Of a stretch of DNA of 64,000 nucleotides, positions 39,978-48,051 are shown in pieces (positions within the stretch are counted from its first letter, which is position 1; the number at the start of each line of letters is the position of its first letter). The DNA lies in the IMG/VR virus record IMGVR_UViG_3300048599_000194, positions 175,177 through 239,176 of that record. One strand, given 5' to 3'. A model generated the notes under the pieces. It did not search any database. It was not told where the DNA came from and saw nothing but the letters and a program-made list of their open reading frames with translations. Source of the stretch: a virus (lineage: Duplodnaviria > Heunggongvirae > Uroviricota > Caudoviricetes). The position numbers and the translations under genes were made by a program.

Positions 39978-40007
39978 AAGATACGCCATTTGATTAGATT
40001 AGTCAAC
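39978..40007 (-). promoter_or_regulatory. sigma70-type early promoter
   Basis: GTTGAC-N17-GTATCTT. Confidence 0.85.
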
Positions 40008-40414
40008 TAGAAAGAAAATACAATTTCTTCTTTCTCGTCTTTTTTTGATTTCAGCTTAATTGAGAATCCAAGCCTCTTCAGATTCTTGGAATAATCCCTA
40101 TACGAATCAGCAATGAAGAGATTTCGATTAGGAACTAGAGAACGATACCAGAGAATATCCAAAAAGAGATTCGCTTGATAGCATTCCTGCCGACATTCAA
40201 TTACAATGATCTTGACATTACGCCTAAACTTCGGAAGGAGCTTCAAAAATAGTGCATCTAGATCTTCAACATGATGAAGCACATTTCGGAATCTAATCTT
40301 ATTGATCGAATTATCCGGAATCTCTTCAATGCTATTGAAGGTGCAATTGGCTCCAGCGTCTAGGGTTGCCCACCCTTTGGCTGGAGCAAAGCCTGATCCG
40401 AAGTCCAGTTTCAT
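40007..40414 (-). CDS. Class I SAM-dependent methyltransferase-like protein
   Basis: MKLDFGSG motif I, NVLHHVED; ATGA-coupled to the radical SAM gene. Confidence 0.7.
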   Translation of the reverse strand: MKLDFGSGFAPAKGWATLDAGANCTFNSIEEIPDNSINKIRFRNVLHHVEDLDALFLKLLPKFRRNVKIIVIECRQECYQANLFLDILWYRSLVPNRNLFIADSYRDYSKNLKRLGFSIKLKSKKDEKEEIVFSF

Positions 40415-41154
40415 TTGCAGTTCAGGTCGAGGTTGCCAATCTTCTTGCAATAGTGCTCCCAGCGGCTGAACACTCCGACCGGAGTGATAATCATGTCAGT
40501 GGCGTCATAGCCCTTGTAGGCCCCGAAAACGCCAAACTGATGCCCTTCCCACTCGTAGTCGAAGAAATTGCAACCATCGTCCTTGATCTTGGTCGCTGGG
40601 AGCTTCTCCTCGAAATCGAATTCACCATAACGACCCATGAGGTCTTCACAGACCACCGCATAGAATCCATCGGTGAGGATATGCTTGAGAATCTGAACAA
40701 GTGCATCTCCATTGGATTCATTGCACTTGGGAATGTTGATGCGAGTATTAGGAATGTACTTGCGGCACATAAGCGCCTGTTCCCGACGAGCCAAATACAT
40801 GTCCAAGGAGGAAATGGAAATGGCAACTTCACTTAGACCTGCATCTGCATAGCTAGAGATTCGCTTCTCATCAAGAAGAATTCCATTCGTGACAAGGCAA
40901 ACATCTTCCTCGACATTCTCCCGAGTCAGCTTGATGTACTCGGGGAGATTCTTGAGAATAGTCGATTCACCACCCATGATAGTCGCTCGCTTCATCTTTC
41001 GACCGCAACGACGGAAGGTGTCTCGCATGAGATCCATATCCAAAATTAGACGAGGATCCTTATTCGGCTGATAGCAGAAGTAGCAATTAGGTTGCATGTT
41101 GCAATAAAGATTGGTGATAATGCGGTAACGGAAATACTGATCCTTGATTGCCAT
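40411..41154 (-). CDS. Radical SAM enzyme (atypical CX5CX2C)
   Basis: YCNMQPNCYFC, TIMGGES, CLVTNG. Confidence 0.85.
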   Translation of the reverse strand: MAIKDQYFRYRIITNLYCNMQPNCYFCYQPNKDPRLILDMDLMRDTFRRCGRKMKRATIMGGESTILKNLPEYIKLTRENVEEDVCLVTNGILLDEKRISSYADAGLSEVAISISSLDMYLARREQALMCRKYIPNTRINIPKCNESNGDALVQILKHILTDGFYAVVCEDLMGRYGEFDFEEKLPATKIKDDGCNFFDYEWEGHQFGVFGAYKGYDATDMIITPVGVFSRWEHYCKKIGNLDLNCK

Positions 41155-42326: not shown

Positions 42327-42363
42327 AAAAGAAAAAAGGGCAAGTGAATTCCACTTACCCTTC
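42327..42363 (-). terminator. Intrinsic terminator after the AACGQL peptide gene
   Basis: AGGGTAAGTG-GAATT-CACTTGCCCT followed by TTTTTCTTTT. Confidence 0.8.
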
Positions 42364-42386
42364 TAGATTCATCTGAATCAGGGGGA

Positions 42387-42518
42387 TTAACCCTGCTCAT
42401 TCTCCGAGATAATGGCAAGCTGGCCGCATGCGGCTCCTGCCTGCACCTCGGCATTGGTGGCAACCGCCACGGCGAAATCGAATCCGGCGCTCTCCAGCTT
42501 CTGCTTGATGTCTTCCAT
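42387..42518 (-). CDS. 43-aa peptide equal to the C-terminal catalytic segment of RlmN/Cfr (AACGQL)
   Basis: MEDIKQKLESAGFDFAVAVATNAEVQAGAACGQLAIISENEQG; AAGGAG RBS; own promoter and terminator. Confidence 0.8.
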   Translation of the reverse strand: MEDIKQKLESAGFDFAVAVATNAEVQAGAACGQLAIISENEQG

Positions 42519-42567: not shown

Positions 42568-42597
42568 AAGATACGATGCACTCGATATTTAGTCAAC
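42568..42597 (-). promoter_or_regulatory. sigma70-type early promoter dedicated to the AACGQL peptide
   Basis: GTTGAC-N17-GTATCTT. Confidence 0.85.
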
Positions 42598-42601
42598 AGT
42601 T

Positions 42602-43468
42602 TTAAGGTACAATCACAGGGCCATTAAAACCAACCTTCAGATGATCAATATCGAATACTAGATTCGAATCAGCCTTCGTCATGTCACAGTAATGCCTTGC
42701 GTACCATCGATTCAAATCCCCCTCATTATCAAAAGTCACATAATTTGCACAGAAGCAAGCATTTTTGTCATTGAATGTGCAAACTCGGCGAGTATTTTTC
42801 ATCTGATTGAGATTGATCTTCATGAAATCAACATGATTTGATCTACAATACTCATTCACCTTCATCAAACTCACAAAGCCATATTCATGGAATCCGAGTC
42901 GAGAATAATGATTGATGAAATCATACATGTCATTTTCATCATCAATATAACCCTTGATTAGATTACAAGATAGATGAATTTTATCCTTAATACATTGTTC
43001 AAGCCCTTTCAGTTCCATGTCACTCAGCACATCACATTGAAAAATTTCATAATTCTGAAATTCAATTCCATGCCGGGATAGAGCAAAAGAATTGAGATAT
43101 TCGAAATTGACGTGATGTAGATTGAAACCATTAGAATTTACGATTGTGAAAATATTTTCATCTAAGCTCTTAACCAATCGAAGGCACTCATTCAGAAGTT
43201 CCCATTGAAAGGTTGGTTCTCCGCCAGTGAAACTAATCTTATTGATCCGAACTTTCTTTTTCAGTTCATGCAGAACGTAATAAAATTTGTAGAAATCGAA
43301 ACTAGTCAAATTACGATTTCGGAATTCACAAAATTCACAAGCCGCATTGCAAGTATCTGTAAGTCGAACATATAGATTGACGTAATTATCTCCGTCAGGT
43401 TTCTGCTCGACTCCATTATATGTACATGGAATGATTTTCAGCGGGACTTCACACCCGAAGAGATTCAA
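42602..43468 (-). CDS. Radical SAM enzyme
   Basis: TDTCNAACEFC, ISFTGGEPT, IVNSNG; C-terminal CFC. Confidence 0.9.
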   Translation of the reverse strand: MNLFGCEVPLKIIPCTYNGVEQKPDGDNYVNLYVRLTDTCNAACEFCEFRNRNLTSFDFYKFYYVLHELKKKVRINKISFTGGEPTFQWELLNECLRLVKSLDENIFTIVNSNGFNLHHVNFEYLNSFALSRHGIEFQNYEIFQCDVLSDMELKGLEQCIKDKIHLSCNLIKGYIDDENDMYDFINHYSRLGFHEYGFVSLMKVNEYCRSNHVDFMKINLNQMKNTRRVCTFNDKNACFCANYVTFDNEGDLNRWYARHYCDMTKADSNLVFDIDHLKVGFNGPVIVP

Positions 43469-43819
43469 TTAGCACCGTCCATTGCTGGATTGATGATTCC
43501 CGCACGATCCAGTTGCAGGCTTACTCGGAGGAGGATCACCACATCCTCGATTATTCGTGCGGGTGTTAGAAGAGCCACAGCCGCCATCGGAACTGCCAAT
43601 GGTGTACGAGGACGTTTGCGATGTCTTATTGGCCTTCTTACTCTTCCTATCCACCCCTCCGGCGATCTCAACAACCATTTCATACACATCCTTACTGACC
43701 TGATCCAGGAGATAAAGACTATTCATCTTTTCGATGAATGCCTTATCTGGCTTTCCAGCCTTTCGATGGGTGGAAAGCGCCGAGATGTAGAAGTTGAGAG
43801 ATTCGAGATCTATGCTCAT
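43469..43819 (-). CDS. 116-aa protein with low-complexity Cys-Gly repeat tail (RiPP-precursor-like)
   Basis: Helical N-terminus, then GGCG, RGCG, GSCG and terminal GRC; coupled to both radical SAM neighbours. Confidence 0.75.
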   Translation of the reverse strand: MSIDLESLNFYISALSTHRKAGKPDKAFIEKMNSLYLLDQVSKDVYEMVVEIAGGVDRKSKKANKTSQTSSYTIGSSDGGCGSSNTRTNNRGCGDPPPSKPATGSCGNHQSSNGRC

Positions 43820-44610
43820 ACCAGATTCCTCGCTTCGATGATTCCCTTACCCATGTGGTTCGACTCCGAAATGTTATTCGGATTGATGGGCGAAATCTTG
43901 ATGAAGAAATACTGAGGGTCGAAGAACGTGCGGAGCTTTTCGATGTCGAAATCGGCCTCATCCACAAGTGTCATGTTGACAGTGGTCTTAAGATTCGACT
44001 GAGTACGAATCTGCCCGAGTTCTTCGATGGTGACCTTATGCTTGAAAGGAATGAGATCATTCCGCCGAGCATCGTCCAAAGAATGGAGCGAAACCTGGAG
44101 CGTGATGTTCCCCTTGATCCACGAATAGTCGGCATCCTTAATTCCGATGGTGGAAATATAGTGATGCGTGTTCGGATACTTTTCCGAAATAATGGAAATT
44201 GCCTTCTTGACCTCATCCACGTTCAGGAAGGTATCACCCATTCGAGTATAGTTGATCTTGAATTCCTTGGAATTCCGAGGATCTCGATCAGGATTCTTGG
44301 AGATAATGAATTCGACCTGTGCTACAATTTCATCGGAGGTCAGATTTCGGAACCTCTTGAGATTTCCAGTTGCGCAGAACTTGCATCGCACGGGGCACCC
44401 GCTCGCAACCGAAACGCCGATCATCCATCGTTCATCTCGATTCCCAAGATCAGCGCAGACCAGATCATTTTGCTTTCGGCCAATTGCATCCTTCGTATAG
44501 AATGGCAGGAAGGTGTCTGTCGTTTCCAGAGGAAAGCCATCTTCGGTGTGCAGAAGATAGACGGATCCGTTGGCGAAGTGCTTGCTGGTCTTTTCGGTCA
44601 GTGCGGTCAT
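43816..44610 (-). CDS. RlmN/Cfr-like radical SAM protein lacking both catalytic cysteines
   Basis: IGVSVASGCPVRCKFCATG, RNLTSDEIVAQV, RMGD, ISTIG, QVSLHS, SPINP; no Cys after the cluster motif; start at the ATG with AAGGAG RBS. Confidence 0.9.
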   Translation of the reverse strand: MTALTEKTSKHFANGSVYLLHTEDGFPLETTDTFLPFYTKDAIGRKQNDLVCADLGNRDERWMIGVSVASGCPVRCKFCATGNLKRFRNLTSDEIVAQVEFIISKNPDRDPRNSKEFKINYTRMGDTFLNVDEVKKAISIISEKYPNTHHYISTIGIKDADYSWIKGNITLQVSLHSLDDARRNDLIPFKHKVTIEELGQIRTQSNLKTTVNMTLVDEADFDIEKLRTFFDPQYFFIKISPINPNNISESNHMGKGIIEARNLV

Positions 44611-44640: not shown

Positions 44641-44670
44641 AAGATACGTCAATAAACGCAATGCGTCAAC
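44641..44670 (-). promoter_or_regulatory. sigma70-type early promoter of the radical SAM operon
   Basis: GTTGAC-N17-GTATCTT. Confidence 0.85.
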
Positions 44671-45316: not shown

Positions 45317-45721
45317 TTGAAGTTGGCAATAAATAAAAGAATGACCAAATACATGTATAATTCAGCAATATATGAATCAAAAGAAAAATTCGAAGTAAAA
45401 GAAAATGAGTTTATGCTAGTATTAGATGGCGTAGTAATTTCAAAGTCTGGATTTAATATTGAGTCGTCGGATGAATTTTTCGATGAGCCATATGTGAGCC
45501 TATATGACGTTGAAACAGTGAAGAAATATAGAGGAAGAGGATATGCTCATGAATTGTTTAATCATATATTCGAATTTGTGAAGAATTCATTAGAGATAAA
45601 GATAATAACATTGATAGTATATAAAGAGAATATAAAGGCTATTAAATTGTATAATAGCTTGGGATTTGAAATCTTTATGGAATATGAAGATAGCTATTCA
45701 TTGGTTAAACATCTCATTTAA
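45317..45721 (+). CDS. GNAT-family acetyltransferase
   Basis: LYDVETVKKYRGRGYA (motif A), LIVYKENIKAIKLYNSLGF. Confidence 0.85.
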   Translation: MKLAINKRMTKYMYNSAIYESKEKFEVKENEFMLVLDGVVISKSGFNIESSDEFFDEPYVSLYDVETVKKYRGRGYAHELFNHIFEFVKNSLEIKIITLIVYKENIKAIKLYNSLGFEIFMEYEDSYSLVKHLI

Positions 45722-46575: not shown

Positions 46576-47043
46576 CTACTTAGTAGGACATGAAGCCAAT
46601 CCCTTAGCCAGAATGCTTGCGTCCTGCCCGCGAATCTTAACTCCATATTTACGAGCAACGTAATCCCAATGCCTCAAATACCAGCACTGATTCTGAGCAG
46701 GAAGATATTCAGATAGTCCCTTATCACCCTTAGAGCGATTTTCGTGCGCCGAAACCGAAACCAAATTGGAATCGTCCGTTGCCATTTGATGCTTGCGATC
46801 AGGAGAGAAATTAGCACCCCCATTATCATATGCATACTTCAAGGGGATAATATGGTCAATATCGACATTTCGGCTATTTGGAATTGATACGCCAGAATAC
46901 TTACATACCCATTGACCATTGACTTGATCTCTATCAAGAATGTGTTCACGAGTATGTTTCCACTGATTTGCACTAATCCAATCGCCCCTATTATAGGACG
47001 ATCCTGCGAGTGCCATTGCGAGTGCCATTGCGACTAACTTCAT
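46576..47043 (-). CDS. Secreted HNH nuclease, DUF1524-like
   Basis: Signal peptide; CKYSG...DIDHIIPL...SNLVSVSAHENRSKGDK. Confidence 0.8.
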   Translation of the reverse strand: MKLVAMALAMALAGSSYNRGDWISANQWKHTREHILDRDQVNGQWVCKYSGVSIPNSRNVDIDHIIPLKYAYDNGGANFSPDRKHQMATDDSNLVSVSAHENRSKGDKGLSEYLPAQNQCWYLRHWDYVARKYGVKIRGQDASILAKGLASCPTK

Positions 47044-47285
47044 TTTCTACTCCTAAGTTCCTGGTCTTCTTCATCTACCAGCTTATCTATGTTAGCATCA
47101 CATTGATAGCAGTGGTAATGCACATGATCTTCATGGTATCCAGTCATGTGATCTTTCTTACTCTTCACCTTAATTCCACATAGTGTGGTATCTTCATGTG
47201 AAATGCAAAAATGCCTGCGATTGTCAACCCCAATACATTCAAGCATATTGAGTAGCTTTACATGGGCTGATGAATTATCAATCAT
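47040..47285 (-). CDS. Small Cys/His protein
   Basis: ORF in packed operon. Confidence 0.65.
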   Translation of the reverse strand: MIDNSSAHVKLLNMLECIGVDNRRHFCISHEDTTLCGIKVKSKKDHMTGYHEDHVHYHCYQCDANIDKLVDEEDQELRSRK

Positions 47286-47662
47286 CGAGATATATTTCCG
47301 GATGTAGTAGTAACATCACCTTCGACATTACCTTTAACTCGAACATTTCCACTGTTCGTGCATACTTCACCGTGAATATCACCACCAATTTCAATCGATC
47401 CGGTTGTAGATCCAACTTCGCCCTTGACATTACCTCGGACGCTAATATTTCCGCTATTGCTGGAAACGTCTCCAAGTACATCTCCGACAATAATACATGT
47501 TCGGCATGCTTCAAATTCGAGACTTTCTAAATTTCCTTCAATCTTAATATCAATAGTCTTTCCTTCCGGTGTGACATCAACACCATTAATGAAAATCTTA
47601 TTGTCTCCAATATTGACGTTATTTCCTTCATACACCTTTTCATTGATGGTAATTTTTGCCAT
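47282..47662 (-). CDS. Beta-helix repeat protein (bactofilin/DUF4097-like)
   Basis: Repeated GDV-x-S/T-x-SG-N/S-I/V units; start reassigned to MAKITI. Confidence 0.65.
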   Translation of the reverse strand: MAKITINEKVYEGNNVNIGDNKIFINGVDVTPEGKTIDIKIEGNLESLEFEACRTCIIVGDVLGDVSSNSGNISVRGNVKGEVGSTTGSIEIGGDIHGEVCTNSGNVRVKGNVEGDVTTTSGNISR

Positions 47663-47730
47663 AAAAATTCTCGCTTTCGACAGAAATTTGAAGAATCTAT
47701 TGATGACTGTATTAACTAATGAAATACTCA

Positions 47731-48051
47731 TTATTCATCTGTCTCTTGGAAAAGAAGATCAACCATATTACCAGAATTCCCAAAAGGATGGCACATGCTA
47801 CGAGAAATCTCTCGGATGAAATTTCCGATAATGTGATTCTTCAATTCAGAATGACTGAACCATGCCACCTTGTGAGATCCTACGTTCTTAATCCAGTGAA
47901 GGGAGTAAGAGATGCAATTGTTAAATCCTTCCTGGCACTTATTGATGCTAACTTCTTTAATATAGCCAATACTACCATCTTCAAGCTGAACAATATCAAA
48001 AGGCTTGTGTGCCATTTTTGCGTATTTCTTGAGTTCTGTTTCAGTTGCCAT
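47731..48051 (-). CDS. Hypothetical protein
   Basis: ORF in packed operon. Confidence 0.7.
   Translation of the reverse strand: MATETELKKYAKMAHKPFDIVQLEDGSIGYIKEVSINKCQEGFNNCISYSLHWIKNVGSHKVAWFSHSELKNHIIGNFIREISRSMCHPFGNSGNMVDLLFQETDE

Follow-up and report, generated by a model that had tools for sequence, protein, structure and literature searches.

A conserved gene pair of large phages, encoding a protein with a C-terminal Cys and a radical SAM enzyme, resembles a peptide-modification system

The window analysed here is a stretch of 64,000 nucleotides (64 kb) from a complete phage genome of 306,252 bp with direct terminal repeats. The element under study is a small gene on the minus strand (43469..43819, ATG start, TAA stop), which encodes a protein of 116 residues ending in Cys. 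It belongs to a minus-strand row of four genes: the N piece of an RlmN/Cfr-like radical S-adenosylmethionine (rSAM) enzyme (43816..44610, 264 residues), the 116-residue open reading frame (ORF), a second rSAM gene (42602..43468, 288 residues, here called the rSAM-290 type), and a gene for a 43-residue protein (42387..42518) containing AGAACGQLA, the C-terminal motif of RlmN. The ATG of the small gene overlaps the TGA of the RlmN-like gene (ATGA at 43816-43819), and its TAA (43469-43471) abuts the TTG start (43468) of the 288-residue enzyme. The small gene and the rSAM-290 gene are a conserved, tightly coupled pair. This pair, which many large phages and some gut bacteria carry, looks like a new enzyme-substrate system for modifying peptides.

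The AlphaFold2 model of the small protein showed three helices (residues 5-20, 25-37, and 43-53; predicted local distance difference test score, pLDDT, > 90), followed by a disordered tail of Gly, Ser, Asn, Pro, and Arg (residues 54-116). The head (residues 5-53; 43661..43807, minus strand) is well conserved and forms the predicted docking surface for the rSAM enzyme. The tail (43472..43660, minus strand) varies in length and sequence among relatives, and the terminal Cys codon lies at 43472-43474. The four Cys residues are found in GGCG, RGCG, GSCG, and terminal GRC motifs. An earlier note on this DNA had described the ORF, these four motifs, the helical N-terminus, the ATGA overlap of 4 nucleotides, and the abutting second rSAM gene, and all of these features were confirmed. 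Word-based search identified five homologues of the small protein (60-93% identity), and exhaustive profile search gave 10 representatives, some of which have an additional middle domain of ~80 residues. All nine representatives that were retrieved end in Cys, and eight of the nine contain GSC[GSE]G; the conserved end of the tail is RGCGDPxPxKxxTGSCGNHQSS(SS)NGRC. Together with positional equivalents in about 20 more phage loci, these homologues indicate that the ORF is not a chance reading frame.

Alignment of 30 small proteins (A3), with identity to the window protein down to 14%, showed that only Met1 and the terminal Cys are invariant. The conservation of the Cys motifs suggested in the earlier note thus held for the last two Cys residues (GSCG and the terminal one) among the close and profile homologues, but not for a "CG repeat". 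The first two CG motifs are lineage-specific, and the tails of most relatives contain one or two Cys. In most members a D-P/G-C or G-S-C sequence is located 9-13 residues ahead of the terminal Cys; several members have the terminal Cys only (both copies in L008, copy 2 in L028, and L017; L numbers denote the collected loci). The small protein of the window could not be assigned to a family in Pfam, NCBIfam, or PHROGs. The Pfam scan of the 30 members gave scattered chance matches, with no family matched by more than two of them, and Foldseek searches against PDB and the protein atlas found nothing meaningful. The head was also considered as a split-off N-terminal domain of RlmN; the profile search against PDB sequences gave no such match (best E-value 0.08, to an unrelated protein).

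The phage loci were assembled by means of the neighbouring 288-residue enzyme, for which more than 447 homologues were found, together with 27 IMG/VR loci and further genomic contexts. In 21 of the 23 distinct phage loci, at enzyme identities of only 31-82%, the gene immediately preceding the rSAM gene is a small ORF with a final Cys. Hence the linkage to rSAM genes proposed earlier extends to other genomes, and the layout of a leader-like head, a Cys-bearing tail, and an adjacent rSAM gene is conserved across distant phages. Translational coupling was conserved with the downstream rSAM gene, but not with the upstream RlmN-like gene, which is separated from the small gene by 118 nucleotides in L002. 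The gap between the small gene and the rSAM gene ranges from -7 to +21 nucleotides in the other loci and is often out of frame. Stop readthrough or fusion of the two proteins was considered, as the two genes adjoin in the same frame both in the window and in L002; this was rejected, since L002 has TAA-ATG and the gaps vary elsewhere. The pair is also found without the RlmN pieces, in L017, L018, L029, and L033. Tandem paralogous small genes are present in L008/L014 and L028, an arrangement usual for precursor genes, and the paralogues located 149 and 369 nucleotides from the enzyme gene retain the terminal Cys. The terminal codon is TGT in 16 cases and TGC in 11, and both the preceding codons and the spacing to the next start vary. 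Selection therefore acts on the protein and not on a ribosome-binding site, and the terminal Cys as a by-product of the ribosome-binding site of the next gene (AGGTGC) was ruled out, because both codons are used.

The 288-residue enzyme contains the CxxxCxxC motif (C40, C44, and C47). Across 35 aligned enzyme sequences from phages and bacteria, three further Cys residues (C15, C238, and C240) never vary, and C168 is conserved in 34. Because of this conservation, these residues might ligate an auxiliary [4Fe-4S] cluster, one that may have an open site like that of MoaA. Pfam matched only the generic Radical_SAM and Fer4_12 families, and neither a SPASM (PF13186) nor a twitch domain was found in the Pfam and profile scans. 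No NCBIfam cut-off was reached: the scores were 34 bits against 300 for YydG, 31.1 against 284 for MoaA (TIGR02666), 29 against 180 for viperin, 18.6 against 340 for PapB, and 13.1 against 300 for SkfB, and the AlbA and CcpM profiles were also far below their cut-offs. The weak matches to PapB, SkfB, and YydG are confined to the rSAM core, as is the best match of the enzyme profile to a PDB sequence (YydG). The AlphaFold2 model (pLDDT 90.8) has a C-terminal half made of a β-sheet with a single CxC motif. Its nearest solved folds are MoaA, GDGT-MAS, viperin, BlsE, and SkfB (template modeling score ~0.5-0.6). As judged from this model, the enzyme is MoaA/viperin-like in fold and lies outside the curated families. 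The search for rSAM-enzyme fusions longer than 505 residues found none, which is weak evidence. In one locus (L020:5977-6969) the rSAM-290 homologue continues into an AACGQL piece, giving an apparent fusion of 330 residues, the sole such case. It may be an assembly error of one nucleotide, because TAA TAA occurs in the +1 frame at the junction; if real, it would link the 43-residue piece to the rSAM-290 enzyme.

Complex prediction for the small protein and the 288-residue enzyme, with alignments supplied for both chains, gave ipSAE (interaction prediction score from aligned errors) values of 0.82, 0.84, and 0.81 in three runs, which express the model's own confidence, against 0.00 for the best of three controls. 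Of the 80 solved complexes, 58 reached the score mark applied, as did 2 of the 110 mismatched pairs; these counts are approximate here since our own alignments were used. At least 40% of the contacts agreed between runs, and the partner pLDDT was at least 58. The predicted interface comprises residues 6-41 and 115-116 (Arg-Cys) of the small protein, and residues 194 and 225-254 of the enzyme, a range that takes in the invariant C240 and N242. In the model, the head is predicted to dock on the C-terminal β-sheet of the enzyme, and the last two residues of the tail also touch it. This predicted complex supports the binding of the small protein by the 288-residue enzyme.

In 19 of the 23 phage loci, the RlmN-like N piece and the AACGQL piece flank the pair, one on each side. 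The AACGQL motif of RlmN holds the methyl-carrying Cys. In the window, the two pieces (43816-44610 and 42387-42518) show the RlmN/Cfr features incompletely: the cluster motif is present, Gly occupies the position of the resolving Cys, seven residues ahead of the cluster motif (MIGVSVASGC, compared with TVCVSCQVGC of 6fz6), and the AACGQL Cys is available only in trans, on the 43-residue protein. The N piece scored 74 bits with the RlmN profile (cut-off 290). Homologues of the N piece were found in 32 phage-collection records. The split pair occurs without a Cys-ended protein in two of these, Kehishuvirus "tikkala" (crAss-like) and Moorella phage MTATph1, in which the N piece and a piece of 40-43 residues are adjacent with nothing between (L005:3744-4666 and L038:3480-4442). 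Neither a Cys-ended neighbour nor an rSAM-290 gene anywhere in the genome was found in these two phages. The split N piece is ~262-274 residues long and lacks the resolving Cys, in "tikkala" and MTATph1 as well.

Among 22 cellular loci with homologues of the 288-residue enzyme (26-35% identity), 21 have a gene for an HemN-like rSAM enzyme of ~430 residues next to the homologue. This HemN-like enzyme matches the STM4012 family profile best, though below its cut-off; the HemW and HemN cut-offs were not reached either. A protein of 117-164 residues that ends in Cys is also encoded beside these genes in seven loci, which were assigned to Clostridia, Bacilli, Bacillota, and Christensenella (L041 carries the label Muribaculaceae). 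These Firmicutes-type small proteins have a helical head, a tail of Ser, Gly, Arg, and Cys, and a final Cys. The mycofactocin rSAM profile scored 21 bits on a bacterial homologue (cut-off 265). Both RlmN-like and HemN-like enzymes add one-carbon units via methylene radicals. The replacement of the RlmN-like enzyme by an HemN-like one suggests, but does not prove, a one-carbon step in the pathway. A second radical enzyme that adds methyl or methylene groups probably acts in the same pathway, namely the split RlmN-like enzyme with its 43-residue AACGQL piece in the phage and the HemN-like enzyme in bacteria.

Several cellular loci are organized differently. In L044 (a metagenome-assembled genome, MAG, of Bacilli with the HemN-like version), an RlmN-N-like stretch and an 80-residue ORF with GGGCGQL (1741-2528) are located about 1 kb upstream, so that both kinds of one-carbon rSAM enzymes may coexist there. 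In L040 (Clostridia MAG), the three-gene set is closely followed downstream by genes for a B12-binding rSAM enzyme and an rSAM-SPASM enzyme (2768-4156 and 4708-5649), an arrangement suggestive of a larger cluster for peptide modification. In Bacteroidota (L042:3172-4992, L045:4112-4993, and L054:2693-3955), including the isolates Bacteroides bouchesdurhonensis and Xylanibacter ruminicola KHT3, the rSAM-290/HemN-like pair follows a larger protein of 290-600 residues, and not a small Cys-ended one. Several of these larger proteins contain SCGEGKGPNR(Y/D)PY near the C-terminus, and one has a weak tubulin/FtsZ-like match.

The pair was compared with known rSAM systems. As for the rSAM maturases of peptides that are ribosomally synthesized and modified after translation (RiPPs), including the sactisynthases AlbA, CteB, and SkfB, the ranthipeptide enzyme PapB, and the epimerase YydG/EpeE, the putative precursor gene adjoins the rSAM gene. 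Like sactipeptide and ranthipeptide precursors, the small protein combines an N-terminal part that resembles a leader with a C-terminal part that bears Cys. The auxiliary cluster of CteB has an open site for the substrate thiolate, and the extra conserved Cys residues of the 288-residue enzyme could act likewise. However, the enzyme has only 288 residues, no SPASM or twitch domain, no RiPP recognition element (RRE), and a MoaA/viperin-like fold; the "leader" is a folded three-helix domain, and the conserved site is the very last residue, a trait that these classes lack. In mycofactocin biosynthesis (MftA ending in Val-Tyr, MftC, and MftB), a terminal residue is modified by an rSAM enzyme, as is proposed here. 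MftC modifies the C-terminal residue of MftA, where strict terminal placement matters. Only this terminal-residue logic is common to both systems: MftC is an rSAM-SPASM enzyme that needs the RRE protein MftB, whereas neither SPASM nor a PqqD/RRE protein was found here, the terminal residue is Cys instead of Tyr, and a peptidase and the other Mft genes are absent.

MoaA (GTP 3',8-cyclase) and viperin are the nearest in fold, are among the best profile matches, and are similar in size to the 288-residue enzyme. MoaA has an auxiliary cluster held by three Cys with a free substrate site. The extra Cys residues are placed elsewhere here (N-terminal C15, strand C168, and the CxC of 238/240), the profile scores are far below the cut-offs, and the genomic partner is a small Cys-ended protein instead of genes for molybdenum cofactor or nucleotides. 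The enzymes that flank the pair belong to the groups of RlmN/Cfr (class A) and the HemN-like class C methylases (TbtI, NosN, and ChuW). In contrast to RlmN, the enzyme of the phage is split, its AACGQL Cys lies on the 43-residue protein, and the resolving Cys is absent.

We consider it probable that the 116-residue protein is a substrate, as a precursor or a scaffold, of the 288-residue enzyme that is translated right after it. The most likely site of such a RiPP-like modification is the terminal Cys. The head would serve as a folded leader and dock on the C-terminal sheet of the enzyme, and the tail would carry the terminal Cys, with its thiol and free carboxylate, into the active site, where a 5'-deoxyadenosyl radical would modify this residue or its neighbourhood. 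The candidate reactions include oxidative decarboxylation, comparable to that of MftC on a C-terminal Tyr, a thioether or other cross-link whose partner would be the Cys located 9-13 residues upstream or an aromatic tail residue, and a one-carbon addition carried out by the second enzyme. The strict terminal placement of the Cys implies that the free carboxylate matters, whether for recognition, for chelation of cluster iron together with the thiolate, or through its own loss. A more specific proposal, which is held with less assurance although it has a fair share of the probability, is a new class of rSAM-modified proteins. In this class, the encoded C-terminal Cys would be the modification site, its thiol and carboxylate would be presented to a MoaA-like auxiliary cluster, and the residue would be rebuilt with the split RlmN-like enzyme in large phages or the HemN-like enzyme in gut Firmicutes, yielding a new terminal moiety or cross-link used in infection.

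Several points weigh against the substrate reading. The ipSAE values are no measurement of binding. Two phage loci deviate from the pattern, as the protein of L024 ends in Cys-Ser and the upstream protein of L030 has 353 residues. Neither the four-gene unit nor the scanned neighbours revealed a protease, an exporter, or an RRE/PqqD-like domain; release at lysis is possible, or the product may stay a protein. Homology between the phage and the Firmicutes small proteins was not established (hhalign probability 17%), and the parallel between them therefore rests on architecture and gene position. The nesting of the pair within the RlmN pieces could be historical rather than functional, because the split RlmN pair stands alone in two other phages. 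Moreover, a folded head of 53 residues with a long linker would also fit an accessory subunit. In that role, the main rival reading, which seems to us rather unlikely, the head would anchor the protein and the Cys-pair tail would be a swinging thiol or dithiol arm, which would supply reducing equivalents or an H atom, or ligate the auxiliary cluster, much as the Cys pair at the C-terminus of class I ribonucleotide reductase does; the actual substrate would then be another molecule, for example a nucleotide or RNA. The confidently docked, folded head of the model, the nucleotide-acting MoaA and viperin among the nearest folds of the enzyme, the two Cys residues spaced 9-13 residues apart near the end of most members, and the lack of a protease or exporter in the unit are all consistent with such an arm. 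However, a dithiol is not general in the family, since the terminal Cys stands by itself in the L008 copies, L028 copy 2, and L017. Both the tandem paralogues and the hypervariable tails, in which Cys units are repeated, are features typical of precursors, and a redox arm needs no strictly terminal position.

The other alternatives find less room beside the substrate reading. It is improbable that the small protein is a helper of the split RlmN-like enzyme, supplying in its terminal Cys either the resolving Cys in trans or an alternative methyl acceptor. The Gly at the position of the resolving Cys, and the location of the small gene between the two RlmN pieces in 19 of the 23 phage loci, would agree with this role, but it is weakened because each unit occurs without the other: the split pair is found without the small protein and rSAM-290 in "tikkala" and MTATph1, and the small protein with rSAM-290 is found without RlmN in four phage loci and with an HemN-like enzyme in bacteria. 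The interface that passed is also the one with the 288-residue enzyme, the sole partner modelled. The related suggestion in the earlier note, that the CG motifs are alternative acceptors resembling AACG, found no support, as their likeness to AACGQL is trivial, the CG context is unconserved and absent in most relatives, and the split RlmN occurs without the small protein as well. A true sactipeptide or ranthipeptide cluster, with thioethers from Cys sulfur to C-alpha, C-beta, or C-gamma within the tail, was the class to which the earlier note had pointed. Several tail Cys residues 9-12 residues apart beside an rSAM gene, and the weak PapB, SkfB, and YydG matches in the rSAM core, are in line with it. 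Nevertheless, membership is unsupported because the defining SPASM or twitch domain is absent; the scores are far below the curated cut-offs, the nearest fold is MoaA/viperin, the C-terminal half of the enzyme is a β-sheet with only a CxC, and most relatives have one or two Cys in the tail. We regard this assignment as very unlikely. The same low probability is given to a merely historical adjacency, in which an unrelated accessory gene travels with the rSAM gene. Phage gene order can be kept by descent, and the small protein has no known family. However, the pair is kept at 31-35% enzyme identity, its neighbourhoods differ, and cellular genomes have it in another gene order; the terminal Cys does not vary, and the complex prediction outscored its controls.

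The transcription signals and the neighbouring genes were also inspected. A strong terminator-like hairpin (42334..42364, minus strand; 14-pair stem and T run) is located just 3' of the 43-residue gene, and by its sequence marks the putative 3' end of the four-gene unit. Promoter-like sites on the minus strand precede the RlmN-like N piece (44641..44669; TTGACG, 17 nucleotides, TATCTT) and lie between the rSAM gene and the 43-residue gene (42568..42596; TTGACT, 17 nucleotides, TATCTT). Both are consensus matches only, and the number of such sites is no higher than in shuffled sequence. An AAGGAG ribosome-binding site of its own precedes the 43-residue gene. For the RlmN-like gene, the most likely start is the ATG at 44610, because AAGGAG precedes this ATG and the resulting 264 residues equal the length of its relatives; the TTG at 44661 is an unlikely start. 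A third rSAM gene (40411-41154, minus strand; 247 residues, viperin/MoaA-like by profile) is coupled to a gene for a small class I SAM methyltransferase (40007-40450, minus strand). These two genes (40007-41154) are linked to the module only in close relatives and L008/L014, a loose association. A GNAT acetyltransferase gene (45317-45721) is the sole plus-strand gene of its stretch, and genes for an HNH/GmrSD_C-like nuclease (46576-47043) and a weakly bactofilin-like protein (47282-47731), both on the minus strand, are located nearby. In related phages (L006:395-2454 and L008:5047-8577), the module lies near genes of nicotinamide adenine dinucleotide salvage and repair, including NAMPT, NADAR, nucleoside 2-deoxyribosyltransferase, and Tpt1-like RNA 2'-phosphotransferase.

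In the literature searched, the coverage of which was incomplete so that an earlier description is possible, no description of the module was found, and, according to the profile scans, neither the small protein nor the 288-residue enzyme appears to be covered by a curated family. The module is spread over 27 IMG/VR loci, uncultured phage genomes of 635-735 kb, and many metagenomic contigs, and has a counterpart in gut bacteria. Peptides modified by enzymes are seldom met in lytic phages, and a strictly C-terminal Cys is not a defining feature of the rSAM peptide classes with which the pair was compared. If the terminal Cys is modified, the pair would represent new radical chemistry, and the role of the split RlmN-like enzyme of phages would then be linked to a protein. 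Such a modification would also point to a phage function, for example in host takeover or counter-defence, or as a cofactor or a released peptide.

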